Counted from the stretch's first letter, positions 19,442-47,400 are shown. The stretch: DNA of 64,000 nucleotides from an uncultured Bacilli bacterium (GCA_947631295.1 CANRKU010000002.1:10274-74273), one strand, 5' to 3'. Numbers and translations are program-made. The notes: a model not told the origin generated them from the letters alone.

Positions 19442-21400
19442 ATGTTTAATTTAGTATCCAAATATCAGGCATCTGGAGATCAACCACAGGCTATTGATAA
19501 ATTAGTAGATGGTATTCAAAATGGAACGAAACATCAAGTTTTATTAGGAGCAACTGGAACTGGTAAAACATTTACGATTGCGAATGTAATTCAAAAAGTA
19601 AATAAGCCAACTTTAGTGCTAGCGCATAATAAGACACTAGCTGGGCAACTTTATAGTGAATTAAAAGAATTATTTCCTAATAATCATGTCTGTTATTTCG
19701 TTAGTTATTACGATTATTATCAACCGGAAGCATATGTTCCATCTACCGATACATATATTGAAAAAGATTCGTCTATTAATGATGAAATAGATGAACTGCG
19801 TCACTATGCTACAAGTTCCTTATTATCCTATGATGATGTTATTGTTGTAGCAAGTGTTAGTTGTATCTATGGTATTGGAGAAGTAGAAGAATATAAAAAT
19901 AAAATGTTAAGTCTAGGAGTAGGAGATTCTGTAGAACGAAATACCATTATGACTAAATTAGTTGAAATGATGTATGAAAGAAATGATTTTGATTTTAAAC
20001 GTGGAACTTTTCGAGTAAAAGGGGATGTTTTAGAAATTATTCCAACCAATCAAAATACCAAAGGATATCGCATTGAATTCTTTGGAGATGAAATTGATCG
20101 TATTAGTGAAATTGATACATTAACAGGAACAGTCCTACAAAATAAAAAAACAGTTAGTATTTTTCCAGCCAGTCACTTTGTTACCAGTGATGAAAAATTA
20201 ATAGAAGCCATTAAAAGAATTAAATTAGAACTGATAGATAGAATTCAATATTTTAAAGATAATAATAAACTATTAGCTGCTGAGAGAATAGAACAAAGAA
20301 CAAACTATGATTTAGAAATGCTAACAGAAACAGGTTTCTGTCGTGGTATTGAAAATTATTCTAGACATATGGCTTTACGTGGAGAAGGGGAAACACCTAC
20401 TACATTAATGGATTTCTTTCCTAAAGATTTTTTATTAGTTGTGGATGAATCACATGTTACATTACCACAAGTTAGAGGAATGTATAATGGAGATAGAGCA
20501 CGTAAAATGAATTTAGTAGATTATGGATTTAGACTTCCTAGTGCTTTAGATAATAGACCACTTAAGTTTGATGAATTCGAGAGTAAAATCAATCAAGCAA
20601 TTTATGTATCAGCAACACCTGGTGATTATGAGCTTGAAAAGACCAATCATACTTATATTGAACAGATTATTCGTCCAACAGGATTATTAGATCCAACCAT
20701 AGAAGTGAGACCAAGTGAAGGACAAATAGATGATTTAATTGGTGAAATTAAAGACCGAATTGAAAAAAATGAAAGAACTTTGATTACAACCCTTACAATT
20801 CGTATGGCAGAAGAATTAACCAACTATTTAAAAGACATTGATATTAAAGTCGCTTATTTGCATAGTGAGATTAAAACTTTAGAAAGAATGAAAATCATTC
20901 GAGATTTACGTTTAGGAAAATATGATTGTATTGTGGGAATTAATTTACTACGTGAAGGTTTAGATATTCCGGAAGTTAGTTTAATTGCGATACTAGATGC
21001 TGATAAAGAAGGATTTTTACGAAGCGAAAGAAGTTTAATTCAAACCATTGGACGTTGTGCTAGAAATGCTAGTGGACACTGTATTATGTATGCTGATAAA
21101 ATAACAGAAAGTATGGAACATGCTATTAATGAGACTATGCGTCGTCGTAGTGTTCAGGAAAAATACAATGAAGAACATGGTATCATTCCACAAACCATTC
21201 ATAAAGAAATCAGAGATTTAATTAGTAATGTAGAAGAAGAAAAAGATAATAAAAAACCAAAGAAACAAGATAAGAAAGAATTATTAAAAATGATAGAAGA
21301 AATTGAGGAAGAAATGAAAAAAGCAGCTAAAGATTTAGATTTTGAAAGAGCTATGGAATTAAGGGATGCTTTATTTGAATTAAAAGCAGAAATAGAATGA
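19442..21400 (+). CDS. uvrB: excinuclease ABC subunit B
   Basis: AAGGAGGT RBS then ATG 19442; the track start 19403 is too early. Walker A GATGTGKT, the helicase motif DESH, and the C-terminal UVR coiled-coil segment ([29 protein letters not shown]). Confidence 0.95.
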
Positions 21401-22263
21401 AAAAGTTTAAAAAAATTTATATTGAAATTACGAATATCTGCAATTTATCCTGTTCTTTCTGTAGCCAAGATCATCGAATGAAAGAAAATATTACGCTAGA
21501 AAAAATGGAAAAAATTCTTCAAAAAATTAATCCTTATACAGATTATCTTTATCTTCATGTAAAAGGAGAACCTCTTCTTCATCCACAATTAAAAGAAATT
21601 TTAGATTTATGTAGTAAATATCATAAACAAGTCAATATTACGACCAATGGTACCTTGGTAAAAGATAGATGTGAGATATTAAAACATCCAGCAATCAGAC
21701 AAATTAATATTTCTTTGCATAGTGAAAATGAAAAACAAAATTATTTAGAAGAAATCTTTGAAACAGTGGATATCTTAAAACAGAAAATTATTGTTTATCG
21801 TTTTTGGACTATGGATGATAATAAATTAAATCAAAAATCCACTGAAATTGTGAATAAAATAATTGCATATTATCAGTTATCCCCAGAATTTGTGGATAAA
21901 GTAAAAAAAGAAAATCATATTAAAATGAGAGAAAATTTATATATCGATAAGAAAAATGAATTTATTTGGCCAAGCTTAGCAAATGATTATGTTTCTGATA
22001 GGGGATACTGTTATGCTTTAAAAGACCAATTAGCTATTTTAGTAGATGGTACCATTGTACCCTGTTGCTTAGATAGTAATGGAATCATTATTTTAGGAAA
22101 TATTTATGAACAATCACTAGAGGAAATTATAAATAGTAGTCGATTTCAAAAAATTAAAGAGGGATTTGAGAATAGAAAAATGGTGGAAGATTTGTGTAAA
22201 CACTGTAGTTTTAAAGATATACTTACTAAAAATTTCCAATCCAGAACGAGAAAAAATAATTGA
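21397..22263 (+). CDS. radical SAM domain protein with C-terminal SPASM/twitch-like Cys cluster
   Basis: CNLSCSFC (CxxxCxxC) at residues 15-22 and a GEPLL motif; C-terminal CCLDSNG..C..CKHCSF cysteines. The ATGA overlap with the uvrB stop suggests translational coupling. Substrate unknown. Confidence 0.65.
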
Positions 22264-22328
22264 CAACAATCGATTTCTATAATAGAATAAATCTCCTAGT
22301 TAATCATTAGGAGACAGGGGATTTGAAA

Positions 22329-22628
22329 ATGGGAATTCATAAAAAAGTATATATTGGTCATGTTGAAACTATTAATCCAGATGCCAGTGAATTGATTTCT
22401 CCAGTAGAGTCAAAAGTAGTAGCATTAAAGTTAATAGGATTTGATCATGTTAAGAAAATACCTCAATATAAGCCATTGAGAAAATATAAGGAATATTATA
22501 AAATAATGAGGGTAGAAGAAAGACCTTTGGTTAGTAGTTTAGGCAGCTTTGTAGGAGATAAACAAATTGATTATGCTTTACGAAAAACGGGAAAAGAAGA
22601 AGTAAAAAAATTAAAGAAAAGTGCTTAA
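22329..22628 (+). CDS. hypothetical small basic protein
   Basis: ORF downstream of the rSAM gene (the track starts at TTG 22323; ATG 22329 is likelier). No Cys and no recognisable domain. An upstream hairpin (22292-22313) overlaps its RBS. Confidence 0.4.
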   Translation: MGIHKKVYIGHVETINPDASELISPVESKVVALKLIGFDHVKKIPQYKPLRKYKEYYKIMRVEERPLVSSLGSFVGDKQIDYALRKTGKEEVKKLKKSA

Positions 22629-32621: not shown

Positions 32622-34271
32622 ATGAGCAAACTAATAATAACGATTAATGGTAGTCAAAAAGAAATAGATTACGGTACTACGCTAGAAACAATTTCAAAAG
32701 ATTACCAACAAGATTTTAAATATGATATTATTATCGCAAAAGTAGATGGAATTTATAAAGAATTAATTGATACTATAACTAAAAACAGTGAAATAGAATT
32801 TCTAGATTTAACACATCGTAGTGCTAATTCTATTTATGTAAATGGATTGATTTACTTAATGATTTATGCTTTTCAGCAAGTATTTGGGAAACAGGCAAAT
32901 TTAAAAGTGTGCCATTCCCTAGATAAAGGTTTATATATTGAGCCTACTATTCCAATAAAAAAAGAAGATCTTGATGTATTAGAAAATAAAATGAGAGAAT
33001 TAGTAAATAGTAATCTTCCTATTCAAAAAGTTACTGTTTCTAGATTAGAAGCAATGGAATATTTTAAAAATATTGGCGATTTTATCAAGGCAGATATTAT
33101 GAAATATGTAACATCTACCCATCTTACTTTATACAAATTAGGTAATATGTACAATTATTTTTATAGTCTAATGCCCATTTCTACCAAAAGTTTATCTCAT
33201 TTTGAATTAACTTATTTAAATGAAAAAGGTTTTGTATTAAGATTCCCTACTATTTATATGAAAGACGGTATTAAACCTTATGAGCATAGGGAAAATGTAT
33301 TTCATTTATTTCAAGAAACACGTGCCTGGGCTAAAAAATTAAATCTTGAAAATGTGACTGATTTAAATAAAAGGGTATCTGGCAGTAACATTGAAGAATT
33401 AATCCAGTTAGATGAGGTTATGAAAAATTATGGACTAATGGAACTTGCAAAGAAAATTATTTCTAATCAAAATGTAAAAGTAGTTTTATTAGCAGGTCCT
33501 TCTTCAACAGGAAAAACCACGACTACCAATAAGTTAATGCTAAGCTTAAAGAGTTTAGGGAAAAATCCTAAAATGCTATCGATGGATGATTTTTTTGTTG
33601 ATCGATGTGATACTCCATTAGATGAGGAAGGAAATCCTGATTTTGAACGATTAGAAGCAGTAGATTTGAAATTATTTGAAGAAACGATTGAAAAATTGTT
33701 AACAGGGCAAGAGGTAATTCTCCCTACCTTTAATTTTGTTTTAGGAGAAAAAGAATATAAACAAAAGATGCAAATAAGTTCTGATGATATTTTATTAATT
33801 GAAGGAATTCATGCTCTAAATCCAAAAGTATTAGAGCATATTCCAAAAGAAAAAAAATGTACTATTTATCTATCTGCTTTAACTGAATTAAATATTGATA
33901 ATCATGTTAGAGTATCTACAACAGATAATAGGCTATTAAGAAGAATTGTAAGAGATAATAGAACTCGTGGTAATAATGTTGAGGAGACCTTAAAAAGTTG
34001 GGCTAAAGTAAGAGAGGGAGAAGAAAATTATATTTTTCCTTATCAAGATGAAGCAGACTATACCTTTAATACAGCGATGATTTATGAATTAGGAGTATTA
34101 AAAACTTTTGTAGAACCACTTCTTTATTCAGTAGAACCGACATCCCCTTATTATAATGAAGCAATTCGTTTAATTAATTTTTTAAGATTATTTTTACCAA
34201 TTCCATCGGAGAGTATTCCTAGTGATTCTATTTTAAGAGAATTTATTGGGGGTGGATGTTTTCGAATATAA
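32622..34271 (+). CDS. uridine kinase family protein with N-terminal TGS/ThrRS-like domain
   Basis: P-loop VVLLAGPSSTGKTTTTNKL followed by a uridine-kinase-like core (DDFF, IEGIHAL). The N-terminal ~60 aa resemble a TGS domain (MSKLIITINGSQKEIDYGTTLETI). Confidence 0.6.
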   Translation: MSKLIITINGSQKEIDYGTTLETISKDYQQDFKYDIIIAKVDGIYKELIDTITKNSEIEFLDLTHRSANSIYVNGLIYLMIYAFQQVFGKQANLKVCHSLDKGLYIEPTIPIKKEDLDVLENKMRELVNSNLPIQKVTVSRLEAMEYFKNIGDFIKADIMKYVTSTHLTLYKLGNMYNYFYSLMPISTKSLSHFELTYLNEKGFVLRFPTIYMKDGIKPYEHRENVFHLFQETRAWAKKLNLENVTDLNKRVSGSNIEELIQLDEVMKNYGLMELAKKIISNQNVKVVLLAGPSSTGKTTTTNKLMLSLKSLGKNPKMLSMDDFFVDRCDTPLDEEGNPDFERLEAVDLKLFEETIEKLLTGQEVILPTFNFVLGEKEYKQKMQISSDDILLIEGIHALNPKVLEHIPKEKKCTIYLSALTELNIDNHVRVSTTDNRLLRRIVRDNRTRGNNVEETLKSWAKVREGEENYIFPYQDEADYTFNTAMIYELGVLKTFVEPLLYSVEPTSPYYNEAIRLINFLRLFLPIPSESIPSDSILREFIGGGCFRI

Positions 34272-34297: not shown

Positions 34298-35023
34298 TTA
34301 ATTTGGGTAATATTCTTGAGCAAGAGAAACTACATTAGAAGTAATAATATAAGATTTATCCATGATGTCATTACTTAGGCTTGTTTTTACATCTTCATAT
34401 AAATTAGGATTGTTAATATCCCCCATCATAATATAACGATTATTATTCATTTGATTTTTAATATATTTGCTACATTCATTGATATTCGCATGTTGAATAG
34501 ATACTGAATAAAAATCTAAGTCTAAATCCCAAAAATAAGGCTCTGTATTCATAATAACCGCACCAATCTTCGCCTTATTTTCCTTTGCTTTCATATCTAA
34601 AACAATTTCTTTACAAGAGCTTTTGATATAGATATTATCATTAGGATATTGATTAATTAAGTTGAAAATGGTTTGTATAAAATTAGAATTATTCTCTCCA
34701 TGACTATTTAAATTTAATACTAACATTTTAGAAGTTGTTTCAAAAAGTTTTAAAACATCTTCTAATGTAATAATCCAATGTTTTTTTACTTTGCTTCCTA
34801 AATTAAATTTTTGTAGTTCTGTATAAGTTAAATTGGATATTTTATAATTGGGATGATTATCAATAGCATCTGTTTGATAGACGATGATTTTACCATCTTT
34901 TGTCATGTTCAAATTCATTTCAACACCAGCAATATAATCAGTGTGAATGGCTAATAATAAAGAGTCATAAGTATCAACTGGTGTATTTTTAGAACTTGGT
35001 CCATTTCTAGCTATTAAATTCAT
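34298..35023 (-). CDS. glycerophosphodiester phosphodiesterase (GDPD)-like protein, probably catalytically degenerate
   Basis: 241 aa. The N-terminus aligns by eye with UgpQ-type GDPDs, but HRG is replaced by ARNG and the catalytic HD by YQTD. Confidence 0.45.
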   Translation of the reverse strand: MNLIARNGPSSKNTPVDTYDSLLLAIHTDYIAGVEMNLNMTKDGKIIVYQTDAIDNHPNYKISNLTYTELQKFNLGSKVKKHWIITLEDVLKLFETTSKMLVLNLNSHGENNSNFIQTIFNLINQYPNDNIYIKSSCKEIVLDMKAKENKAKIGAVIMNTEPYFWDLDLDFYSVSIQHANINECSKYIKNQMNNNRYIMMGDINNPNLYEDVKTSLSNDIMDKSYIITSNVVSLAQEYYPN

Positions 35024-35106
35024 GATTCACCTCTTATTCTTATTTTATGTGTAAAAATAAAATATATGATAAGTGACAAGTTTTGTATAGTGAATAAAGG
35101 AATATA

Positions 35107-35135
35107 TTGAATCACTTTGGATAAGATTATATAAT
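35107..35135 (+). promoter_or_regulatory. sigma-A-type promoter of gap (TTGAAT - 17 bp - TATAAT)
   Basis: TTGAAT at 35107-35112, a 17-bp spacer, TATAAT at 35130-35135. Confidence 0.55.
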
Positions 35136-35152
35136 GAAAATAGAAAGGATAG

Positions 35153-36169
35153 ATGATAATGAAAGTAGCAATTAATGGCTTTGGTAGAATTGGCAGACTT
35201 GCCTTTAGGCAAATGTTTCATAAAGATGGAATTGATATAGTAGCAATTAATGATTTAACTTCTCCTGAGATGTTAGCTTATTTATTAAAATATGATTCTG
35301 CTCAAAAAAAGTATGAATTAGCAGATACTATTCAATATACAGAGAATTCTATTATCGTTGATCAAGAGGAAATTAAAATTTATAAAGAACCAGATCCTAA
35401 AAATTTACCATGGAAAGAATTAGGAGTAGATGTAGTTTTAGAGTGTACAGGCTTTTTTACAACTAAAGAAAAAGCGAATGCTCATATTGAAGCTGGTAGC
35501 AAAAAAGTGCTTATTTCAGCACCTGCCGGGGATGATGTAAAAACAATTGTATATGGAGTGAATGAAGATATTTTAACCAGTGAAGATAATATTATATCAG
35601 CTGCTTCCTGTACTACCAATTGTCTTGCACCAATGGCAAAAGCTTTAAATGATTATGGTAAGATAGAATCCGGTATTATGACAACCATTCATGCCTATAC
35701 AGGAGATCAAATGCTATTAGATGGTCCGCATCGTAAAGGAAATTTAAGAAGAGCAAGAGCAGCTGCCGTAAATATTGTACCTAATTCAACAGGGGCAGCT
35801 AAGGCTATTGGGTTAGTTATTCCTGAACTTGATAAAAAATTGATTGGTAGTGCTGAAAGAGTACCAGTAACTGATGGATCTTTAACTATTTTAGATGCTG
35901 TTATCGAAAAAAATGTAACAAAAGAGGAAATAAATAGTTATATGAAAAGTAAAACGAGTGAATCCTATGGTTATACAGAAGAAGATATTGTTTCCAGCGA
36001 TATTATAGGAGATACACATGGCTCTGTATTTGATGCAACACAAACCAAAGCAATCCCACTATCAAATGGAAAATCATTAGTGCAAGTAGTAGCATGGTAT
36101 GATAATGAAAATTCCTATACTTCACAAATGGTTAGAGTAGCAAAATACTTAATGAAATTTATAAAGTAA
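35153..36169 (+). CDS. gap: type I glyceraldehyde-3-phosphate dehydrogenase
   Basis: [11 protein letters not shown]-binding motif and the active site [12 protein letters not shown]. The start may instead be ATG 35159 ([13 protein letters not shown]). Confidence 0.93.
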
Positions 36170-36313
36170 AGAATATTTTCTATTTTTAAACTTTTCATAA
36201 AGGAATGAATAATTATCAATTGATGGAATTTATAGAAGAAAAATAAACAAGAATAAATATAACAAACAAAAAAGAAATCAGCATAGCTTTTTTCTTTTTT
36301 TCTATTAGAATTG

Positions 36314-36322
36314 TGTTATAAT
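36314..36322 (+). promoter_or_regulatory. candidate internal extended -10 promoter (TGtTATAAT) upstream of pgk
   Basis: TG at 36314-36315 and TATAAT at 36317-36322, 20 nt before the pgk start. Weak -35. Confidence 0.35.
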
Positions 36323-36342
36323 GGAAATAGGAGAATGATAAA

Positions 36343-37527
36343 ATGAAAAAAACAATAACTGATTTTGATTTAAAAGGAAAAAAAGTAATCATTCGCGTGG
36401 ATTTTAATGTGCCAATGAAAGAAGGGAAAATTTTAGATGATAATAGAGTGAGAGAAAGCCTACCTACTATTCAGTATGCACTCTCTCATGGAGCTAAAGT
36501 AATCTTACTTTCACATTTAGGAAGAATTAAAACAGAAAGTGATCTAAAAGGGAATTCCTTAGAGATAGTAGCTATTGATTTGGAAAAATTATTAGGAAAA
36601 AAAGTAACCTTCCTACATACCAATATAGGAACAGAAGTAGAAGAAAAAGTTAATCATTTAAAAGAAGGAGAAATCCTTTTGCTAGAAAATACACGCTACG
36701 CAGACTTAGATGGCAAAAAAGAAAGTTCAAATGATTTAGAATTAGGAAAATATTGGGCTTCTTTAGGTGATATTTTCATAAATGATGCTTTTGGAACAAT
36801 TCATAGAAGTCATGCATCTAATGTTGGTATTGCTTCTCATCTTCCAAATGGTATAGGCTTTTTAGTAGAAAAAGAATTAAAAGCGCTTTCTAGTTTAAAT
36901 AAACCAGAAAGTCCTTATATTGTGATCCTAGGAGGAAAAAAAGTATCAGATAAATTAGGGGTGATTAAAAATTTAGTAACGAAAGCAGATAAAATCATTA
37001 TTGGCGGAGCAATGGCATTTACTTTCTTAAAGGCTAAAAACTTAGAAATAGGTAAGTCCTTAGTAGAAGATGATTTTATTCCTTTTTGTAAAGAAATATT
37101 AGCAAATTACTCTCATAAAATAATATTACCAATAGATGTCATAGTATCTGAAAAAATAGAAGAAAATAGTAATTCAATAAATCGTTTAGTAAGTGATATT
37201 CAAGAAAATGAAATTGGATTAGATTTAGGACCAGAAACAATAGAACTTATTAAACAAAATCTAGCAGAAGCCAAAACAGTAGTATGGAATGGCCCATTAG
37301 GCTATTATGAAATAGAAAAATATCAGCTATCTACCAAAGAAATTTTAAAATATTTAACAGAGAAAAAAATTTATACCATCCTAGGCGGTGGAGATATTGT
37401 GGCAGCAAGTTCTAAACTAGGATATCAAGATAAAATTTCTCATGCCTCAACTGGAGGAGGAGCTACTCTAGAATATTTGGAAGGAAAACAATTACCAGGC
37501 TTAGAGGTAATAGAAAATAAAAATTAG
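36343..37527 (+). CDS. pgk: phosphoglycerate kinase
   Basis: AGGAGA RBS. Canonical RVDFNVP, LLENTRY, SHLGR and GGGA motifs. Confidence 0.95.
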   Translation: MKKTITDFDLKGKKVIIRVDFNVPMKEGKILDDNRVRESLPTIQYALSHGAKVILLSHLGRIKTESDLKGNSLEIVAIDLEKLLGKKVTFLHTNIGTEVEEKVNHLKEGEILLLENTRYADLDGKKESSNDLELGKYWASLGDIFINDAFGTIHRSHASNVGIASHLPNGIGFLVEKELKALSSLNKPESPYIVILGGKKVSDKLGVIKNLVTKADKIIIGGAMAFTFLKAKNLEIGKSLVEDDFIPFCKEILANYSHKIILPIDVIVSEKIEENSNSINRLVSDIQENEIGLDLGPETIELIKQNLAEAKTVVWNGPLGYYEIEKYQLSTKEILKYLTEKKIYTILGGGDIVAASSKLGYQDKISHASTGGGATLEYLEGKQLPGLEVIENKN

Positions 37528-37535
37528 GAGTAATC

Positions 37536-38561
37536 ATGAAAAATCTAAAAAAAAATAGCATTATTCTATTATTAATCACAATTATCGTTTTGATTTGTTT
37601 CTTAAAAGATGATTTTCCAAATATTATAAATAATTTAAGAAATGCGAATCCTATCTGGCTGATGCTAGCATTGGCATGTTTCTTTATAGCATTAGGATTT
37701 GAAGCTAAAGCATATCAGGAAATTATTCGTGGATATGAATATGATTATACATTTAAAAAGTCATATAGAATGCTTTTAATCACAAAATTTTTTAATGGAA
37801 TTACTCCCTTTTCTTCGGGGGGACAACCAATGCAAATATACATATTAAATAAAGATGGAATTCGTCTGACAAAAGCTACCAATATTATTATTCAAAATTT
37901 TATTATCTATCAAGCAGCATTAGTAGTTTTTGGAATTTTTGCGATTTTAATAAATCATTATTTAAGTATTTTTACAGAAATCACTCTATTAAAACAATTG
38001 GTAACATTGGGGTTCTTTATGAATACTCTAGTAATGGTAGGATTAGTTATTGTTAGTTTTAGTAGTAAATTCAATCATTTTTTAATTCAAAAAGGAATTT
38101 CTATATTGAATAAATTAAAAATAATTAAAAATAAAGAAGAGAAACAAGAAAAATGGCGTGAAAAAGTAGACGATTTTCATAAAGGAGCAGAATATCTAAA
38201 AAGGAACAAACCACTATGCATTAAAGCTTTTCTTTATAATGTCATTTACTTAGCATTAACTTATGTTATGCCCTATTTTGTGATACTAGCATTAACTAAA
38301 ACAATACCACCTGAAGTAACACCATTAAAAACAATATGTGCATCTGCTTATGTATTAATTATGGGATCCTTTGTTCCAATACCTGGAGCAAGTGGCGGTA
38401 TTGAATTTGGATATTTCAAGTTTTTTGGTAATTTCATAAAAGGAACTTTATTAAGAGCATCATTATTAATTTGGAGAACAATATCCTATTATTTACCAAT
38501 GGTAATAGGAGGAATTTTATTTAATATCAATATAAAAAGAGGCGATCAAGAATGCGAATAG
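37536..38561 (+). CDS. flippase-like membrane protein (UPF0104 / LPG-synthase-TM family)
   Basis: 8 predicted TM segments. The GITPFSSGGQPMQIYIL motif is typical of the family. Its stop overlaps the GT4 start. Confidence 0.55.
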   Translation: MKNLKKNSIILLLITIIVLICFLKDDFPNIINNLRNANPIWLMLALACFFIALGFEAKAYQEIIRGYEYDYTFKKSYRMLLITKFFNGITPFSSGGQPMQIYILNKDGIRLTKATNIIIQNFIIYQAALVVFGIFAILINHYLSIFTEITLLKQLVTLGFFMNTLVMVGLVIVSFSSKFNHFLIQKGISILNKLKIIKNKEEKQEKWREKVDDFHKGAEYLKRNKPLCIKAFLYNVIYLALTYVMPYFVILALTKTIPPEVTPLKTICASAYVLIMGSFVPIPGASGGIEFGYFKFFGNFIKGTLLRASLLIWRTISYYLPMVIGGILFNINIKRGDQECE

Positions 38562-39802
38562 GAATCTTTACAGAAACCTATACTCCTTACATTAGCGGTC
38601 TAGTAACTAGTGAAGTTATGTTGAAAAAAGGTTTAGAAAAATTGGGACATGAGGTATATGTAGTAACAGCTAATTTAGAAAATTTTCGTTATGAATATAA
38701 TGAAAAAGAACATATTTTAAAGATTCCAGGAATTCCAACTGGAATTTACGATTCAAGACTAACAGCAGTCTATCCTATAAAAGCTGTTAATAAAATAAAA
38801 AGTTGGAACTTAGATATTATTCATTCCCAAACTGAATTTGCGATTGGGACATTTGCGAGACTATTAGCTTATCAATTAGATATTCCTTTAGTCCATACCT
38901 ATCATACCATGTATGAAGATTACACTCATTATATTACGAAAGGATATTTCAATAAATCTAGTAAAAAAATAGTAGAATACTTAACCCTTTTCTATTGTGA
39001 TAAAACAGCTAGTGAATTAATTGTTCCTACTAAAAAAGCTTATGATTTATTTAAAGAAAAATATCAAGTTGATAGAAACATTCATATTATTCCAACAGGA
39101 ATCGAATTAGAAAGATTTTACTTAGAAAATATTAATCTACAGAAATTAGCGCAATTAAGAAAACAAGAAAAATTAACCAAAGAGGATTTTGTAGCAATTT
39201 TTATAGGAAGATTAGCCCAAGAAAAAAATGTAGTATTCTTATTAGATGTGATGAAAGAATTAGTACCTAAATATGCTAATTTAAAATTATTAATAGTAGG
39301 AGATGGGCCAGATTCTGATGAGTATAAAAAACTAATTAAAAAATATAAAATAGAAAATAATGTAATTATGACAGGAAAAGTAGAATGGGAAAAAGTTCCT
39401 TATTACTATCATTTATCAGATGTATTTTTAACAGCTTCCCATACAGAAACACAAGGTTTAACAGTAATAGAAGCTATGGCATCTGAAGTAGTACCAATAT
39501 GTATTAATGATGAAAGTTTTCAAAATACAGTAGTTGATGGACTAAATGGTCGAATATTTAATGATAAAAGGGAATGTGTAGAAATCATAAAAGAATTATA
39601 TGAAGATAGAAATAAAGTCAAACAATTAGCAAATCAAGCAAGAATTAATTCTAATCGCTTTAGTGCCAAATATTTTGCAGAATCGGTACTTGACGTATAT
39701 AAATATGCAATAGAACATAAAAAAAATCGTTTAGGTTTAATAGGAAAATTTGTAGATAAAATGAAAGGTAGCAAAGATGAAATGGATAATAAGCAATCAT
39801 AA
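38552..39802 (+). CDS. GT4 family glycosyltransferase, diacylglycerol glucosyltransferase (glycolipid synthase)-like
   Basis: MRIGIFTETYTPYISGLVTSEVMLKKGLEKLGHEVYVVT N-terminus, as in GT4 lipid glycosyltransferases. C-terminal E-x7-E region (EAMASEVVPICINDESF). Confidence 0.55.
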   Translation: MRIGIFTETYTPYISGLVTSEVMLKKGLEKLGHEVYVVTANLENFRYEYNEKEHILKIPGIPTGIYDSRLTAVYPIKAVNKIKSWNLDIIHSQTEFAIGTFARLLAYQLDIPLVHTYHTMYEDYTHYITKGYFNKSSKKIVEYLTLFYCDKTASELIVPTKKAYDLFKEKYQVDRNIHIIPTGIELERFYLENINLQKLAQLRKQEKLTKEDFVAIFIGRLAQEKNVVFLLDVMKELVPKYANLKLLIVGDGPDSDEYKKLIKKYKIENNVIMTGKVEWEKVPYYYHLSDVFLTASHTETQGLTVIEAMASEVVPICINDESFQNTVVDGLNGRIFNDKRECVEIIKELYEDRNKVKQLANQARINSNRFSAKYFAESVLDVYKYAIEHKKNRLGLIGKFVDKMKGSKDEMDNKQS

Positions 39803-40451
39803 GGATCATTTATTAGGGAGTACTTACCAAGAAGAAATTGCTAGATTAGCGAATCCTAATATTAACATTATTATTTGTCCAAATGATGAAGAATTATCAT
39901 CATTTTCGTTAAAAAGAAAAAATTATTTTCTGGGGAGTCAAGATATTAATTATAAATTTTCAATGAATGAATTAAAAAACATGTCTATTGAATATGCAAT
40001 TATTGGGCATTCTGATAGAAGAAAAAAATATCATGAAACAAGTCAAGAAATTCATGAAAAAATAAAGAAATTGATAGATATTGGTATCTGTCCAATTCTT
40101 TGCATCGGTGAAGAACAAGAGGTTGACTTTGAAAAAAAGAATTTAGGTGATGAACTAGAGTCATGCTTAAAAAACATAAAAATTAATCGATTGATTGTTG
40201 CCTATGAACCTGTATGGGCAATAGGAAGTGGAAAAATTCCAACCAAAGAACGATTAATAGAAATAGCAGAATATGTGAAAGAAAAAACAAAAAAAATAAC
40301 AGGGATAACCCCAATTTTAGTATATGGTGGTAGTGTAAATGAAAATACCATTACATTATTAGAAGAAATAAAGTCTCTGGATGGCTATTTAATAGGAAGC
40401 GCTAGTATTGATATTAGCAAATTAAAGAAATTAATAGAGGTGATAAAATGA
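39777..40451 (+). CDS. tpiA: triosephosphate isomerase (short, divergent N-terminus)
   Basis: Catalytic His in IIGHSDRR, catalytic Glu in AYEPVWAIGSG, phosphate-binding YGGSV. Only 224 aa; it overlaps the GT4 gene by 26 nt, and the N-terminal NWKMN motif is degenerate (SNHKDH). Confidence 0.8.
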   Translation: MKWIISNHKDHLLGSTYQEEIARLANPNINIIICPNDEELSSFSLKRKNYFLGSQDINYKFSMNELKNMSIEYAIIGHSDRRKKYHETSQEIHEKIKKLIDIGICPILCIGEEQEVDFEKKNLGDELESCLKNIKINRLIVAYEPVWAIGSGKIPTKERLIEIAEYVKEKTKKITGITPILVYGGSVNENTITLLEEIKSLDGYLIGSASIDISKLKKLIEVIK

Positions 40452-40612
40452 TATTAAATGTTTTTGATAATATATGGACAAGCCTAACAGAATGGTCAAA
40501 TGAATGCTATAAATTTATTATGAATCACTTTGATGAACCTTTCTTTTGGATTATTTTAGCTATTATTTTAATAGCTATTACATTTTGGGCAATATCCGAT
40601 TTAGCTAATAAA
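40448..40612 (+). CDS. possible small membrane protein (~54 aa)
   Basis: Not in the ORF track (below 60 aa). ATG overlaps the tpiA stop (ATGA). Encodes a hydrophobic helix FFWIILAIILIAITFWAI. Speculative. Confidence 0.25.
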
Positions 40613-40620
40613 TAACATAA

Positions 40621-40686
40621 TTCGACATATGTTGACATATCTTGTCAAGTTTCGCTGTATCAATTTGTAGGATATTATTGTATAAT
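40621..40686 (+). promoter_or_regulatory. spo0A promoter region with 0A-box-like sites and extended -10
   Basis: TTCGACA at 40621-40627, the reverse complement of the 0A box TGTCGAA. Inverted repeat TTGACA-tatct-TGTCAA at 40632-40648. Extended -10 TGTATAAT at 40679-40686. GAAAGGAG RBS before ATG 40718. Confidence 0.45.
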
Positions 40687-40717
40687 AATACTTGCGTGGA
40701 GTACGAAAGGAGATAAT

Positions 40718-41491
40718 ATGAAAAAAATCAAAGTACTTATGATCGATGATAACATCGAGTTAATAAGCATGATTAGGGAGTACTTTAATAATCACGCTAG
40801 TATTGAAGTAGTTTTAGAAGCAAGTGATGGAGAAGAAGGAATTAGATTAGCAAAAAATCATCAATCAGATTACGATGTAATAGTCTTAGATTTAATTATG
40901 CCTAAAAAGGATGGATTATCTGTTTTAGAAGAATTAAGAAAAGAAAACATTGATAAGAAGATTATTGTATTAACATCATATAATGCTCAAGATATGATTA
41001 GAAAGGTATCAGAATTAGGTGTAAATTACTTTATTCTAAAACCATTTGAATTAACAGATTTGGAAAAAAGAATAGAAGAATGTGGAGAAGAAAAAGATTA
41101 TTCAAATGCATCCATTGATATCTATCATAATAATCTACAAATTTCTATTACGAAAATTTTACATGAATTAGGAATTCCATCTCATATTAAAGGATATCAG
41201 TATATTCGGGAGGGTATTTCGATTTTATATGAAAAACCAGAAGTAATTGGTGGAATTACCAAAGAACTATATCCTGATATTGCTAGTAAATTTGATACTA
41301 CTGTATCTCGTGTTGAAAGAGCGATTCGTCATGCAATAGAAGTAAGCTGGAATCGCGGAGACTGGGATTTGATGGAAGAAATTTTTGGTCACAGTGTAGA
41401 TATTGATAAAGCAAAACCGACTAATTCAGAATTTATCGTAACAGTTGCTGATAAATTAAGATTAGAGTTCCAAAAGAATTATACAAAATAA
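40718..41491 (+). CDS. spo0A: stage 0 sporulation protein A (response regulator)
   Basis: Receiver domain (MIDDN, phospho-acceptor [10 protein letters not shown]). The Spo0A-specific C-terminal DNA-binding domain: [24 protein letters not shown]...[30 protein letters not shown]...KPTNSEFI. Confidence 0.92.
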
Positions 41492-41493
41492 TA

Positions 41494-41540
41494 AACATGG
41501 CATGGTAAAACATTTCCCAAATGCCATGTTTATTTTTTTA
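41494..41540 (+). terminator. rho-independent terminator of spo0A
   Basis: 10-bp stem aacatggcat / atgccatgtt followed by tattttttta, starting 3 nt after the spo0A stop. Confidence 0.75.
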
Positions 41541-41568
41541 AAGAAACATATGAAAAAAATTTCATTTA

Positions 41569-41597
41569 TTGACTTTTCAAAGAAAAAACAATATAAT
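41569..41597 (+). promoter_or_regulatory. sigma-A-type promoter (TTGACT - 17 bp - TATAAT)
   Basis: TTGACT at 41569-41574, a 17-bp spacer, TATAAT at 41592-41597; upstream of the ATPase gene. Confidence 0.6.
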
Positions 41598-41630
41598 TAA
41601 ATTATAAAATATGCGTGGGAGATACGATTT

Positions 41631-42905
41631 ATGGAACGAAAAATTTATAATGATTTACTAAAATGGAAAAAAGATGTTAGCAGAAAACCTTTATTAGTTT
41701 ATGGAAGCAAACAAATTGGGAAAACTTATACGATTGTTGAATTTGGAGAAAAAGAATATAAGACAGTTGCTTATATTAATAGTGATAATAATCAAGAATT
41801 ATTATCTATTTTAGAAAAAGAAAGAACGATAGATAAAATCATAGCAAAATTATCTCTTTTAGTAGGGGAAAATATTTTAAAAAATGATACATTAATTATT
41901 TTTGACAATGTTGTAAATGAAAGTATTGTGAAAGCTATTAAGAAATTTGGTAAAGAAGAAAATGAATACCATATTATTATGATTACTTCCTTAAAAGAAA
42001 AACTAACAGTTTTTAAAGGAGAAGAACTACAATATAAAAATATGTTTCCTATGGATTTTGAAGAATATTTAAGAGCAATTGGAAATATAGAATTAATTGA
42101 TTTTATTAAGAATTCTTATCGAACTAATAAAAGTATGCCATTTCATAACATAGCAATGGATTATTATGAAGAATATTTAATGACTGGTGGTCTTCCTGAA
42201 AGTATTGTTGCTAGTATCAATAAAGAAAGTGATTTAAAGATAAAAATCATTCATGAGAAACAATTAGATACTTATAAAAAAGAATTTCTAAATTTAGATA
42301 CCCTAATTGATATTATTCGTTGTAATGATGTAGTGAACATTCTACCTTATCAATTGTTAAAACCAAATAGAAAATTTCAATATGGCTTAATGAGAACTGG
42401 TGGAAGAAGTAAAGATTATGAAAAAGCTATTGATTTTTTATCCAATAACAACATTGTTTACAAATGTTATAAAATTAGTGAAGCAAATCCCCCACTTAGT
42501 AGATGCAAAGATTCTGAAAGCTTTAAATTATATTTAAATGATACTGGAATTTTATTTATGATGATGCACATATCTAAACTAAAGTTATTTAGCGATGATA
42601 ATTTAAAATATATTTTATACGAAAATAATTTAGCTAATACCATATTTTCTTGTGGTTATAACCTATACTATTATCAATCCGAAGGAAAAGCAGAAATACC
42701 TTTTATAGTTCAAACTAGAGCAGGTAAAATTATTCCTATTGAAATTGTAAATAAAAATTTATCTAAAGCCAAATCTTTATCATTATTTATGAGTAAATTT
42801 AATATTTCTGAAGCTATTCGTTTTACGGAAGATAATTTTAGTATAAAAAAAGGAGTGAAATATATTCCTATTTATGCTGCATTTTGTTTAAAAGAAAATT
42901 TATAA
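41631..42905 (+). CDS. AAA-superfamily ATPase with DUF4143-type C-terminal domain
   Basis: The N-terminus MERKIYNDLLKWKKDVSRKPLLVYGSKQIGKT (Walker A GSKQIGKT) and overall length fit the AAA_14/DUF4143 family; from memory. Confidence 0.6.
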   Translation: MERKIYNDLLKWKKDVSRKPLLVYGSKQIGKTYTIVEFGEKEYKTVAYINSDNNQELLSILEKERTIDKIIAKLSLLVGENILKNDTLIIFDNVVNESIVKAIKKFGKEENEYHIIMITSLKEKLTVFKGEELQYKNMFPMDFEEYLRAIGNIELIDFIKNSYRTNKSMPFHNIAMDYYEEYLMTGGLPESIVASINKESDLKIKIIHEKQLDTYKKEFLNLDTLIDIIRCNDVVNILPYQLLKPNRKFQYGLMRTGGRSKDYEKAIDFLSNNNIVYKCYKISEANPPLSRCKDSESFKLYLNDTGILFMMMHISKLKLFSDDNLKYILYENNLANTIFSCGYNLYYYQSEGKAEIPFIVQTRAGKIIPIEIVNKNLSKAKSLSLFMSKFNISEAIRFTEDNFSIKKGVKYIPIYAAFCLKENL

Positions 42906-42921
42906 AAGAAAAGGAGAAAGT

Positions 42922-44421
42922 ATGAAACCTATTATTTTATGTATTTTGGATGGATTTGGCCTAAGAGAAGAGATAAAAGGAAATGCAGTAAAATTAGCAA
43001 AAAAGCCTAATTTTGAATTTTTATGGAATCATTATCCACATTCTACTCTAAATGCTAGTGGAAAAGAAGTTGGATTACCAGAAGGACAAATGGGTAATAG
43101 TGAAGTAGGGCATATGAATATAGGTGCTGGAAGATTAGTATATCAGCCGCAAGAATTAATTAATGTAAGTATTGAAAATAAAGAAATTTTTCAGAATCAA
43201 GAAATCTTAAAAGTAATGAATCATGCTAAACAAAATCACTCTAAACTGCATATTATGGGATTAATTAGTGACGGAGGTGTACATTCACATATTAATCACT
43301 TAATGGCAATTCTAGAAATGTGCAAACAAAATCAAATAGAAAAACTATATCTACACCTTTTTGCCGATGGAAGAGATGTAGATCCGTGCAGCTGCTATCG
43401 ATATATAGAACAGGTAGAAAAAAAATTAAAAGAAATAAATGTTGGAAAGATAGCAACCCTTGGTGGAAGATATTATGGAATGGATCGAGACAATAATTAT
43501 GATCGATTACAAAAAGCATATGATGCAATGGTAAATAATATAGGTCCGAAACACCATTCTATCGAAGAATTTATAAAAGAAAGTTATGAGCAAAATATCA
43601 CAGATGAATTTTTAATTCCTACTATCTTTGAAGAAGAAGGAAAAATTGAAGAAAATGATGGAATCATTGTATATAATTACCGCAAAGATCGCTTAAGAGA
43701 AATATTAACAGCTCTTACAAATCCTAGTTTTCAGGATATGAAAGTAAAAAAATTTCAAAATTTAAAAGTAGTAACGATGTTACCAGTGGTAGAATCAGTA
43801 ATTGCTTCTCATGCCTTTGATGATCCGAAATTAACAAATATCTTAGGAGAATATGTAGCCAAAAAAGGATTAAAGCAATTGCGAATTGCTGAAACTGAGA
43901 AATATGCACATGTTACATTCTTTTTTGATGGTGGTAAAGAAGTAGATTACCCAAATGAAAAAAAGATATTAATTCCCTCGCCTAAAGTAGCCACTTATGA
44001 TTTAAAACCAGAAATGAGTATTGTAGAAGTTACAGATACTTTATTAAAAGAATTAACAGAAAATGAATATGATCTGGTTATTTTAAATTTTGCAAACTGT
44101 GATATGGTAGGACATACAGGTAATTTAGAGGCAGCTATCAAAGCAGTAGAAAAAGTGGATGAAAGCTTAGGTAAAATATATCATAAAGTAGAAGAGTTAA
44201 ATGGATTATTAATCGTAACTGCCGATCATGGAAATTGTGAATTAATGATAGATGAAAATAATCATATCATTACCTCACATACTACGAATAAAGTACCATT
44301 TATTATTTGTAACAACAATTATCAAGTAAGTGATGGCAAACTAGGGGATATCGCACCTACTATTTTGAAAATTTTACAATTGGAAATTCCAAAAGAAATG
44401 TCAGGAAAAATATTAATATAG
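42922..44421 (+). CDS. gpmI: 2,3-bisphosphoglycerate-independent phosphoglycerate mutase
   Basis: ILCILDGFGLRE N-terminus, catalytic-Ser region NSEVGHMNIGAGR, C-terminal ADHGN. Confidence 0.93.
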   Translation: MKPIILCILDGFGLREEIKGNAVKLAKKPNFEFLWNHYPHSTLNASGKEVGLPEGQMGNSEVGHMNIGAGRLVYQPQELINVSIENKEIFQNQEILKVMNHAKQNHSKLHIMGLISDGGVHSHINHLMAILEMCKQNQIEKLYLHLFADGRDVDPCSCYRYIEQVEKKLKEINVGKIATLGGRYYGMDRDNNYDRLQKAYDAMVNNIGPKHHSIEEFIKESYEQNITDEFLIPTIFEEEGKIEENDGIIVYNYRKDRLREILTALTNPSFQDMKVKKFQNLKVVTMLPVVESVIASHAFDDPKLTNILGEYVAKKGLKQLRIAETEKYAHVTFFFDGGKEVDYPNEKKILIPSPKVATYDLKPEMSIVEVTDTLLKELTENEYDLVILNFANCDMVGHTGNLEAAIKAVEKVDESLGKIYHKVEELNGLLIVTADHGNCELMIDENNHIITSHTTNKVPFIICNNNYQVSDGKLGDIAPTILKILQLEIPKEMSGKILI

Positions 44422-44437
44422 GATAGGATGTGTGTTT

Positions 44438-47400
44438 ATGAAAAAGAAAAAATCAAAGAAAAAGAAGATAAAAAAAATATCACAAACAACTCATAAAAAA
44501 ATAACACCAGCATTTGATCAAACTGAACAAGAAGAAAAAACCAGTAAAACAATAACAGAAACGCACAATCAAGATATAGTAGAAGAAAAGAAAAAAAAGA
44601 AAAAGAAGATTATTTTTCTATTACTTTTATTCCTATTAGTATTTTGCATATTTAGTATTAGTATCACATATGGAAATAGTATTTATGATGCTATTGAAGA
44701 ACAAGTAATAGAAGTATTAAATCTCAAAAAACCATCTGCTCCAGAAATAACTGGTGGTAGTGGAGAATGGGCTAAAGAAAGATTAATTAAAGTATCTAAA
44801 GATGCAACTACCAAAAATGGCTTAGATTATTACGAATATTGTATTAGTAATAGTAAAAATCTAAAAAATTGTAATTGGAAAAAAACGACAACTAAAAATA
44901 CTAAAGTAATGGAAACAGGAATTCATTATGTTGTTTTTAGAGGAGTAGATAAAGAAGGAAGAAAGGGATATCACTCTAATATAGAAATAGTATATATCGA
45001 CAATAATAATCCTATTATAGAAAATATTACTGTTGATAAGATTACAACGACAAGTATTGATATTAAAGTCAGTGCAAGAGACGAACATAGTGGTATTTAT
45101 AATTATTTTTATAGTTTAGATGGAATAAACTATGAAAAGGGAAATCCAAATTATACGTATCAAAATTTAGAAAAAGAAAAGGAATATACAATTTATGTTA
45201 AAGTAGACGACAAGGTTGGAAATACTACTTTTTTAAGTATGCAAGTAAAGACATTGCCAGAAGATGATAAAAATTCAACCCATGAATCAACAACCAGTCC
45301 AAATCCAACAACCAGTCCAAATCCAACGACTAGCCCAAATCCAACAACCAGTCCAAGTCCAACGACTAGCCCAAGTCCAACGACCAGTCCAAGTCCAACA
45401 ACTAGTCCAAATCCAACGACCAGTCCAAGTCCAACAACTAGTCCAAATCCAACAACCAGTCCAAGTCCAACGACTAGTCCAGATCCAACAACCAGTCCAA
45501 GCCCAACAACCAGTCCAAGCCCAACAACTAGCCCAAGTCCAACAACCAGTCCAAGTCCAACGACTAGCCCAAGTCCAACAACCAGTCCAGATCCAACGAC
45601 TAGCCCAGATCCAACGACTAGCCCAGATCCAGGAAAAGATGATGAGAAAGAGGAAGAAGATACTGAAATTCCAAAGATTAACTTAGATCAAGTACCATTA
45701 GAATTTCCATATGGAAGTAATTATGCTTTGCCAAGTTACTATCACTTTGGACCTAGTGGTGGTGAAGTACAATGTACTGTAGAAGGCGAAATATATACCG
45801 ATACTTCTACTTTAAAAGCAGGAACCCATGTTATTGAATGTATTGCTAAAGGAAATAATGGAATTAATGTTGGAGTATCCAAGAAAGTAAAAGTAACAGT
45901 GGAAGAAGGAATAGATGAAGCTTGGGATGGATGGATACGCTTAAATTTATATTATCCAGAAGATTCTACTAACTGGCAATGGAGAATAGGAAAAGAAGGC
46001 GAAATTCGTGACGGATATGATAATACTGGATGGCAAGACTATACAGGACCAATTTTAGTAAAACTAGAAGATGTTGATGATGTTTATATTCGATATGATT
46101 TAAATGGTGAAACTGTAATTATAGCCCCTAATGGTAAGACAGTAGTAGATATAGAACCTAATAAATATAGTTTGTTATCTGATGAAACAACAAAAGTAAC
46201 AATTATATATGATAAAGACGCAGAAGTAAAAGAATATAAGATAGGCTCTGGCGATTGGCAAGAATATACTAAACCATTTGTAGTAGGTAAAAATACATTA
46301 ATAGAAGCTAGAGTAAGCAAAAAAATAGATGTATATGATAGCGATGGTAATAGACTATATACAAAAACAGTAAGTGAGAGTGATAGCGTATTTATAGGAG
46401 AAATAGTAGAACATGGTAGTAGTAAAGGAACTATCAATGGTGGATCAGGATCTTTTGAATCGGAAACAGTTCCAAATGGAAATACTGTTACCAGACCTAG
46501 CTATGACGCAAGACCATCAGAATATTTATCAGGACCCAATATTAATATTAGTGCAGAACAGATTTCTGAAAATATAGCAGTAAATATTACTACGGAATAT
46601 GATGCAAGAGAAATTTACTACAAGATTGGAAATGGTTCTTATCAATTGTACACAGGAAGCTTTACTGTTACCAATAATACAACGATTAGTAGTTATTATA
46701 TTAGAGAAAGTGATGGTAGAATAAGTAGTACAAGCTATAGATATATTAATAATATATATAGAGGAGAAAAACCATATGTCAGAATTAATGCTATACCAGA
46801 TAATTACCTAACAGAGTCCTTAGATAGTGTAGAAGTAACAATTAGTGGAAGCAACTATGATCAATTAGAATATAGTCTAGATGGACATATTTATTATAAA
46901 TATATAAATCCAATTATCATCACAGATAGTACTACTGTATATGCAAAAGGAATAAATCAATATGGTGTTACCATAGAAAAATTATTAATTACTACTAAAA
47001 CACCAGCGATAAAAAAAGATAATTTAGATATTAGTATCTTATGTAATCCAGATAATTCAAAGGATTTGATAAATCATACTACAGTTACGATTATTTATGA
47101 CAATAGAGCTACTAAAAAATACTATAAATTAGGAAAAGATTCTGAATATCAAGAATATACTGGACCATTTGAAGTATATGAAAATACAACTGTATATGCT
47201 TATGCTATAGGAAAAAATTTAGAAGGAGAAACAAAACGAGGAATAGATTTTTTGACAACAGGAATTATGGAACCAATTATAAAAGTAACTCCTACTACAG
47301 CATCTAATACAGTAATGGTTAATATCGAATTTGATAAAAACGCAAATACAAAATATTATCAAATAAATGGTGGAGAAAGACTTTATTATACAGGACCATT

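Follow-up and report, generated by a model that had tools for sequence, protein, structure and literature searches.

In a stretch of 64,000 nucleotides (nt) from an uncultured Bacilli bacterium (GCA_947631295.1, CANRKU010000002.1:10274-74273; hereafter the window), the sporulation gene spo0A lies inside a cluster of glycolytic genes. Between 35.1 and 44.4 kb the order is gap, pgk, a flippase-like gene, a gene for a GT4 glycosyltransferase, tpi, an open reading frame (ORF) for a membrane protein of 55 amino acids (aa), spo0A, a DUF4143 ATPase gene, gpmI and a giant ORF (Table 1). This gene order is a real, inherited layout that is fixed in the lineage, and neither an assembly chimera nor a private rearrangement. 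We think it likely that the cluster is a lineage-fixed variant of the ancestral glycolytic operon, with three insertions, four transcription units and an autonomous spo0A. ORF calling together with Pfam and NCBIfam scans confirmed every gene call that a first-pass annotation of the window had made in this region, and its identities, order and coordinates held up. The distances it gave, 16 nt from the ATPase gene to gpmI and 16 nt from gpmI to the giant ORF, were both correct on re-measurement.

We compared the window with related genomes, as the first-pass annotation had proposed. A one-genome-per-species scan yielded 143 Spo0A relatives, the best 80 of which were kept as loci (Spo0A 68-93% identical), and the window proteins were searched against these loci with tblastn. 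The relatives listed in a separate homologous-protein search were all at least 78% identical in Spo0A. All 80 loci are metagenome-assembled genomes (MAGs) of uncultured gut bacteria from independent studies, labelled Bacilli, Tenericutes, 'Ca. Scybalousia', Clostridium sp. CAG:1193 or Mycoplasma sp. CAG:877. The name 'Candidatus Scybalousia' is shared by two genera, one of Bacteroidales found in horse and one of chicken Bacilli that is now Ca. Alloscybalousia, and no placement was based on it. The window order recurs in most of the 80 loci, reading PRK-domain protein, gap, pgk, flippase, GT4, tpi, (small ORF), spo0A, (ATPase), gpmI. Where enough flank was available, 57 of 75 loci had tpi no more than 1 kb upstream of spo0A; in 46 of 63 loci the ATPase gene lies downstream of spo0A, and in 32 of 40 gpmI lies at most 1 kb from the ATPase gene.

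The assembly was examined at the same junctions. The exact Spo0A protein of the window is present on five public contigs, one of which was read out: in this independent assembly of the same strain (L001, a Logan contig), the proteins are identical to those of the window from spo0A into the giant ORF, across the junction at 41.5 kb. The junction at 40.6 kb is crossed in the same order by relatives, for example L002 and L003, and no compositional break was seen at 40.6 or 41.5 kb. The shared order in relatives and the identical proteins of L001 exclude the chimera at either position that had earlier been considered. The loci also include variants. Three of them (L060, L066, L079) have spo0A directly abutted by the GT4 gene, without a recognisable tpi, and eleven (L018, L040, L042-L047, L053, L056, L065) have neither tpi nor the lipid pair upstream of spo0A. 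Eight of these eleven keep the spo0A-ATPase linkage; in L040 and L046 the downstream flank is too short to tell, and L044 retains pgk only.

Spacing across the loci was equally informative. The flippase-like gene overlaps the GT4 gene in every locus (n=55), and GT4 and tpi always overlap or abut (-35 to +1 nt, n=54). Median spacing is 11 nt between pgk and the flippase-like gene and 17 nt between the ATPase gene and gpmI. Gaps of more than 400 nt separate gap from pgk in 19 of 38 loci, tpi from spo0A in 8 of 63 and spo0A from the ATPase gene in 20 of 48. The kb-scale inserts that we examined at these three loose junctions hold unrelated cargo that differs from locus to locus. Since such inserts occur only at gap/pgk, tpi/spo0A and spo0A/ATPase, they are confined to the expected ends of transcription units. 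From spacing and signals we infer that the likely units are gap, pgk-flippase-GT4-tpi(-small ORF), spo0A and ATPase-gpmI. The inserts themselves (L006 6445-13700, L028 10900-17130, L036 2790-9850, L025 1560-5370) encode surface proteins of cadherin-like, LPXTG/SpaA and GBS-Bsp-like type, a protein with an ALK/LTK glycine-rich domain, a second DUF4143 ATPase paralogue (in the variable insert of L006), a 567-aa sigma-factor-like protein with sigma-70 regions 2 and 4, an AAA_5/DUF7192 block and, on the opposite strand between gap and pgk, a cassette of NrtR, AAA_28, histidine-phosphatase and thymidine-kinase genes.

Signals were read with some caution. In this AT-rich DNA, promoter-like hexamers are no more frequent than expected (69 by consensus scan versus 76 expected), and what makes the promoters described here credible is their conservation in relatives and not the scan. 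A lenient terminator finder gave false positives within AT-rich coding DNA, and only compact hairpins directly after a stop codon were counted.

The spo0A gene has every mark of a unit of its own. The protein scored 281 bits against TIGR02875 (equivalog cutoff 200) and carries PF00072 and PF08769. Its C-terminal domain matched the B. subtilis Spo0A-DNA complex 1LQ1 with 160 bits over 115 residues and a near-identical recognition helix; its receiver aligned to Spo0A receiver structures, with the acidic pocket (DD), the phospho-acceptor D (VLDLIMP) and the K (ILKPF) all present. Spo0A is known to regulate its own gene through 0A boxes, and Bacillus Spo0A recognises TGTCGAA. The 1LQ1-like C-domain and the intact receiver pocket thus support the predicted recognition of the TGTCGAA box before the gene. 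This box, read as TTCGACA, is the only perfect 0A box in the 64 kb. In 60 of 78 loci the box occurs in the same orientation no more than 160 nt before spo0A, versus 0.3% of background 160-nt windows taken from these loci. It is followed by the inverted repeat TTGACA-tatc-TTGTCAA and then by TATAAT; 74 of 78 loci have a -10-like hexamer 20-65 nt before the spo0A ATG, and the box is found about 55 nt upstream of this conserved -10. The leader, TGCGTGGAGTACGAAAGGAG, is strongly conserved across the lineage. Downstream, a hairpin with a dG (free energy of folding) of -15.2 kcal/mol is followed by T8. Its GC-poor stem is why a simple scan had overlooked it. By a strict test, at least 47 of 77 loci have a hairpin with a T-run after spo0A, and inspection by eye showed more in which hairpin and stop codon overlap. 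The earlier description of spo0A as an insulated unit with 0A box, own promoter and strong terminator therefore stands, as all three are present and conserved. These signals suggest that spo0A is probably an autonomous, autoregulated unit.

A scan for 0A boxes did not connect spo0A with its glycolytic neighbours. No TGNCGAA box was found at the gap, pgk or ATPase promoters, and this relaxed form of the 0A box occurs 5 times in the whole window versus 11 expected. In addition, we found no sequence evidence in the window for control of glycolytic genes by Spo0A, or for an operator common to gap and spo0A. A CggR-like GACA-N5-TGTC palindrome shared by the gap and spo0A promoters was considered and rejected (8 matches versus 11.6 expected; gap keeps only the GTGACAA half, and the palindrome at spo0A is clade-specific). 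A sigma-H promoter for spo0A was likewise dismissed: the window has the -35-like element AGGATATT but no GAAT -10, and the element is not conserved. The heptamer TGCGTGG occurs in just two copies in the 64 kb, at 40693-40699 and 41612-41618, in the leaders of spo0A and the ATPase gene. It was not retained as a shared leader element: the ATPase leader of the relatives reads TGTAAGGAGG, which is the Shine-Dalgarno region, and the ATPase copy is specific to the window.

Compared with the spo0A loci of Bacillus and Clostridium, the window shares a canonical Spo0A, a perfect TGTCGAA box upstream of the gene's own promoter and a monocistronic arrangement with a terminator. It differs in that spo0A lies between tpi and gpmI rather than beside spoIVB/recN, and in that a sigma-H-type promoter is not recognisable by eye. 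No other sporulation genes were found in the 64-kb window, and we found no description in the open-access literature of a spo0A embedded in a glycolytic cluster.

Between tpi and spo0A, the window carries the small ORF, which is start-stop coupled to tpi through an ATGA overlap. Its product has an NH(Y/F)DxPxxW motif followed by a transmembrane helix. Intact small ORFs of 51-57 aa were found in 26 relatives, all with a Spo0A at least 81% identical to that of the window, and L032 is the sole locus above this identity that has none. In the window's clade, 5 nt separate the end of the small ORF from the 0A box. Most of the more distant relatives instead show a compact hairpin and T-run immediately after tpi. 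Read-through from tpi into spo0A would thus be unlikely in most of the lineage and is possible in the window's own clade.

The wider surroundings suggest where the cluster came from. The backbone of the window comprises uvrB, uvrA, lgt, yvcK (CofD), whiA and clpP upstream and the S10 ribosomal operon with secY downstream. In B. subtilis and Listeria, uvrBA-lgt-yvcK-whiA-clpP is the neighbourhood of the cggR-gap-pgk-tpi-pgm-eno operon. The window matches the B. subtilis cggR-gapA-pgk-tpiA-pgm-eno operon in that gap, pgk, tpi and gpmI stand in the same order, on the same strand and in the same chromosomal neighbourhood. It differs in having neither cggR nor eno and in that its glycolytic genes are not contiguous: five non-glycolytic genes are interleaved, giving about four units. 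Upstream of gap, no SorC or Sugar-bind domain of a cggR was found; the genes there are a minus-strand GDPD-like gene and the PRK-domain gene. Enolase was not found in the window by tblastn with an E. coli Eno query or by the PROSITE PS00164 pattern in six frames, and every ORF of enolase size (380-500 aa) was identified as something else. Nor was enolase found within 10 kb on either side of spo0A in the 80 loci, so the missing eno that had been noted in the window is a feature of the lineage; cggR likewise forms no part of the cluster anywhere in the lineage.

The starting state would have been an ancestral Bacilli gap-pgk-tpi-gpmI operon in its ancestral backbone. One insertion would have placed a translationally coupled glycolipid pair, the flippase-like and GT4 genes, between pgk and tpi; another would have brought spo0A between tpi and gpmI, with the small membrane-protein gene added in the window's subclade; and a third would have set the COG1373 ATPase gene, together with a strong promoter of its own, immediately in front of gpmI. 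All three may then have been fixed and vertically inherited in one reduced-genome lineage of uncultured gut Bacilli (the RF39/RFN20 group). A simpler state is seen in L067 (Clostridium sp. CAG:1193), where gpmI directly follows spo0A and the ATPase gene is missing.

We then analysed the inserted genes in turn. The flippase-like gene begins 8 nt downstream of pgk, with a ribosome-binding site that overlaps the stop codon of pgk. The protein passes curated cutoffs (TIGR00374 112 bits versus 43; PF03706 137 versus 33), and a role as an MprF-type flippase is predicted from this family match. The GT4 gene overlaps the flippase-like gene by 10 nt and is itself overlapped by tpi, as had been noted before; this second overlap measures 26 nt. 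Its best NCBIfam match is the alpha-monoglucosyl-diacylglycerol (DAG) synthase model NF049988 (289 bits, full length); this is below the cutoff of 400, and we therefore describe the protein as Mgs-like only. Sequence identity of both proteins to the window copies tracks that of Spo0A (Spearman rho 0.90 each). Known lipid modules of this kind include HexSDF of C. difficile (PMC10128005), the glucosaminyl-phosphatidylglycerol (GlcN-PG) synthase and flippase of P. aeruginosa (PMC12713373) and PplT-domain proteins (bioRxiv 10.1101/2022.03.11.483950). The likeness lies in a stand-alone PplT/LPG_synthase_TM protein encoded beside, and overlapping, a lipid-type GT4. In contrast to the known modules, the window pair has no deacetylase partner, its GT4 is nearest to the Acholeplasma-type monoglucosyl-DAG synthase (below the equivalog cutoff), and it lies between pgk and tpi, with translational coupling to tpi. 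Against the GlcN-PG models, the pair scores far below cutoffs (84 versus 480 and 62 versus 320).

The triosephosphate isomerase (TPI) encoded by tpi matched Pfam TIM with 147 bits (cutoff 20), its best PDB match was 7rgc (E 4e-31), and it misses the NCBIfam equivalog cutoffs (for example TIGR00419, 82 versus 131). The protein is short across the lineage (219-245 aa), and its gene is the fastest-evolving of the cluster, with 59% identity where Spo0A has 93%. Among 61-63 orthologues, no change was seen at the catalytic Asn, Lys, His and Glu or in the YGG loop, so by sequence this is a working enzyme.

Upstream of the ATPase gene, the region's best promoter match was found. By eye, TTGACx, a spacer of about 17 nt and TATAAT or TATACT, together with a conserved leader, precede the gene in essentially all 49 loci that hold it, and the promoter is kept even where an insert displaces the ATPase gene. 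gpmI follows 16 nt after the ATPase gene, with an AAGGAG ribosome-binding site, and its product is above the equivalog cutoff (TIGR01307, 686 bits versus 331). The promoter and the spacing of about 17 nt between ATPase gene and gpmI are conserved across the lineage, and these sequence features lend good support to the earlier proposal of gpmI expression from the ATPase promoter. The ATPase itself has a conserved Walker A motif (GSKQIGKT); its Walker B Asp is conserved as well, as are several acidic residues in the C-terminal part. DUF4143 is a member of the PD-(D/E)XK nuclease superfamily (PMC3424549). In the window copy the Asp that canonically follows the first acidic residue is Pro, so that nuclease activity is uncertain. 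A PDB sequence search with the ATPase gave no match. Over residues 1-422, its full length, the protein matches the PADLOC candidate defence family PDC-S01 with 366 bits. It resembles COG1373/PDC-S01 proteins in this full-length hidden Markov model match and in domain architecture. Unlike a mobile island gene, the window gene is housekeeping-like and supplies the gpmI promoter. The island-like variable context of PDC-S01 was not found; the context is fixed, the promoter conserved, and the gene has diverged together with its neighbours. The closer a relative is to the window in Spo0A, the closer it is in the ATPase (Spearman rho 0.90, n=47), and in L002 the ATPase is as conserved as its housekeeping neighbours (85%, versus 81% for gpmI). 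By sequence, the ATPase gene appears to behave as a vertically inherited resident and not as mobile defence cargo.

The first two genes also appear to carry their own signals. The true start of gap is probably the ATG at 35159 and not the called start at 35153. Its promoter, TTGAAT-17-TATAAT, is present as annotated before and is kept in near relatives. About 25-30 nt upstream of the -35 (window ~35070-35090), a GTGACAA box is kept in relatives with a Spo0A at least about 75% identical; it could be an operator half-site for some regulator. In some relatives it is part of a GACA-N5-TGTC palindrome. The extended -10 of pgk, likewise proposed earlier, is present and conserved: most relatives have TGnTATAAT or TGnTATACT upstream of pgk, often after a clear gap terminator, and in the window the -10 is preceded by a weak A/T-flanked hairpin (~36268-36300). 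The PRK-domain protein (549 aa, 32622-34271), at the place expected for cggR, has a C-terminal PRK/uridine-kinase domain and an N-terminal half without assignment. Its gene directly precedes gap in most relatives (~40 nt); the window's clade has the GDPD-like gene (34298-35023, minus strand) wedged between the two.

Several observations weigh against a lineage-fixed operon variant with four units and three insertions. The unit boundaries are predictions from sequence signals and comparative spacing. In the window's clade (Spo0A at least 81% identical), no canonical terminator was found between the small ORF and spo0A. A recognisable tpi is wanting upstream of spo0A in 14 of 75 loci, and the ATPase gene is wanting downstream of it in 17 of 63, which points to sub-lineage variants. 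Identity of gpmI does not track the cluster (rho 0.40, where the other genes have 0.70-0.90). Its values group at about 76-81%, 66-68%, 56-61% and 46%, without following Spo0A identity (L002-L081); in L007, Spo0A is 91% and the ATPase 81% identical to the window, and gpmI only 61%. As gpmI identity departs from that of the rest, part of the cluster appears to have been exchanged, which suggests repeated in-place replacement of gpmI by recombination or horizontal transfer. The direction of events, insertion into an operon as opposed to assembly around spo0A, was argued by analogy with synteny of the B. subtilis/Listeria type. The RF39/RFN20 label, finally, comes via the relatives of the window.

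Three other explanations deserve consideration. The neighbourhood of spo0A could reflect functional coupling, in which spo0A is co-transcribed or co-regulated with the glycolytic genes, the dose of the regulator follows glycolytic expression, and the small protein and/or the ATPase are parts of the Spo0A pathway. The frequent adjacency of tpi and spo0A (57/75) and linkage of spo0A and ATPase gene (46/63) would fit, as would a small ORF that occurs only beside spo0A, only in the clade with Spo0A at least 81% identical, and that ends just before the 0A box with no canonical terminator. However, most of the more distant relatives have a compact hairpin and T-run right after tpi, spo0A has its own conserved promoter and terminator, TGNCGAA is missing from the gap, pgk and ATPase promoters and rarer in the window than expected, and many relatives tolerate unrelated genes on either side of spo0A. 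We regard such coupling as unlikely. Metabolic coupling, which the first-pass annotation had suggested, is not supported as an effect of Spo0A, given the missing boxes. Read-through into spo0A, which it had also proposed, is unlikely in most relatives, which have a terminator after tpi, and possible in the window's clade, where no canonical terminator was seen. That the small membrane protein and/or the COG1373 ATPase might be lineage-specific partners of Spo0A, with pgk-tpi read-through coupling Spo0A dosage to glycolytic expression, seems distinctly doubtful to us.

It is highly improbable that the ATPase gene is a mobile, single-gene anti-phage defence element of the PDC-S01 type that landed upstream of gpmI and is unrelated to the cluster. 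Such an origin would account for the full-length family match, the nuclease superfamily to which DUF4143 belongs (PMC3424549), the second paralogue in the variable insert of L006 and the 17 of 63 loci wanting the gene, but it conflicts with the same position, promoter and leader in essentially every locus that bears it, with an identity that follows Spo0A and matches that of housekeeping neighbours, with the dependence of gpmI on its promoter (median spacing 17 nt) and with the Pro in the acidic motif of the window copy, which leaves nuclease activity uncertain. The window order could, lastly, be a private, recent or artefactual scramble, from a rearrangement hotspot or an assembly chimera. 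Locus-specific inserts of kb scale at the three loose junctions and a gpmI that looks exchanged in place would be expected at a hotspot; the core order, however, is common to most of the 80 species-level genomes, both junctions are crossed in L001 or in L002 and L003, and composition does not break at either, so that this explanation is barely credible. The 'rearrangement hotspot' of the first-pass annotation is thereby refuted. The annotation had also named a fixed lineage order with separate transcripts as the outcome that would speak against its proposal: the fixed order was found, and the separate transcripts are predicted from conserved signals only. An inherited variant of the glycolytic operon accordingly remains our preferred reading.

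Table 1. Features of the glycolytic cluster and its spo0A in the window.
Feature	Position	Strand	Evidence or remark
gap promoter TTGAAT-17-TATAAT	35107-35135	+	Consensus scan; -35/-10 kept in near relatives
gap, type I GAPDH	35153-36169	+	TIGR01534 419 bits versus cutoff 367
pgk extended -10 TGtTATAAT	36314-36322	+	
pgk, phosphoglycerate kinase	36343-37527	+	Pfam PGK 472 bits
MprF-type (PplT, UPF0104) flippase-like membrane protein	37536-38561	+	LPG_synthase_TM PF03706, TIGR00374
GT4 glycosyltransferase, Mgs-like	38552-39802	+	NF049988 289 bits
tpi, 224 aa	39777-40451	+	Pfam TIM 147 bits
Small membrane-protein ORF, 55 aa	40448-40615	+	Conserved in relatives
Perfect 0A box TTCGACA (reverse of TGTCGAA)	40621-40627	+	Upstream of spo0A
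spo0A promoter region: inverted repeat 40632-40648, -10 TATAAT 40681-40686	40632-40686	+	
spo0A, receiver and Spo0A_C domains	40718-41491	+	TIGR02875 281 bits versus 200
spo0A intrinsic terminator: 41-nt hairpin (41492-41532), then T8	41492-41540	+	
Predicted ATPase-gpmI promoter TTGACT-17-TATAAT	41569-41597	+	Consensus scan, 11/12 matches
AAA_14 ATPase fused to DUF4143, COG1373	41631-42905	+	Pfam; PADLOC PDC-S01 match
gpmI, cofactor-independent phosphoglycerate mutase	42922-44421	+	TIGR01307 686 bits
Giant ORF, ~2619 aa	44438-52297	+	One transmembrane anchor, Lys-rich N-terminus

The giant ORF begins with an ATG at 44438, 16 nt after gpmI, and encodes one transmembrane helix behind a Lys-rich N-terminus. 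Of the 80 MAG loci, only L007 has it after gpmI, and it is also found in the same-strain assembly L001; it is not a conserved part of the cluster. The protein gave weak domain matches only, and parts of its ORF have a GC content of 0.38-0.40, versus about 0.28 for the window.

Elsewhere in the window, uvrB and uvrA, which are usually adjacent, are separated by a radical-SAM/SPASM gene (288 aa) that overlaps the end of uvrB and by a subsequent, unassigned 101-aa ORF (21397-22628); the two could be a peptide-maturase pair. Three very large surface proteins are predicted in the window: the product of the giant ORF, one of 1697 aa (472-5565) with M60-like peptidase, fn3, F5/8-type-C and dockerin-like domains, and one of 1148 aa (9309-12755) with BspA-type leucine-rich repeats.

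The genus CAG-877, represented here by locus L072, is placed by GTDB in the order RF39 (PMC8035907). Members of RF39 and of two RFN20 families are reported to have spo0A with a reduced sporulation gene set and were predicted to be spore formers (PMC10868615). For this uncultured gut lineage, which is related to Mollicutes and whose sporulation ability is under debate, pgk-flippase-GT4-tpi-spo0A-ATPase-gpmI provides a conserved synteny marker, and its spo0A appears to bear the hallmarks of a working, autoregulated gene and not of a relic. The lineage is reported to have lost much of classical sporulation regulation; a coupling of Spo0A to glycolysis, if true, would represent a minimal nutritional input to sporulation. 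The predicted units can be tested with metatranscriptomic data. Furthermore, a pair for glycolipid synthesis and flipping is hard-wired to tpi, and an ATPase family listed as a 'defence candidate' can serve as the stably inherited promoter donor of a housekeeping gene. These findings overturn nothing in the current understanding of operon evolution in Bacillota, but refine it.

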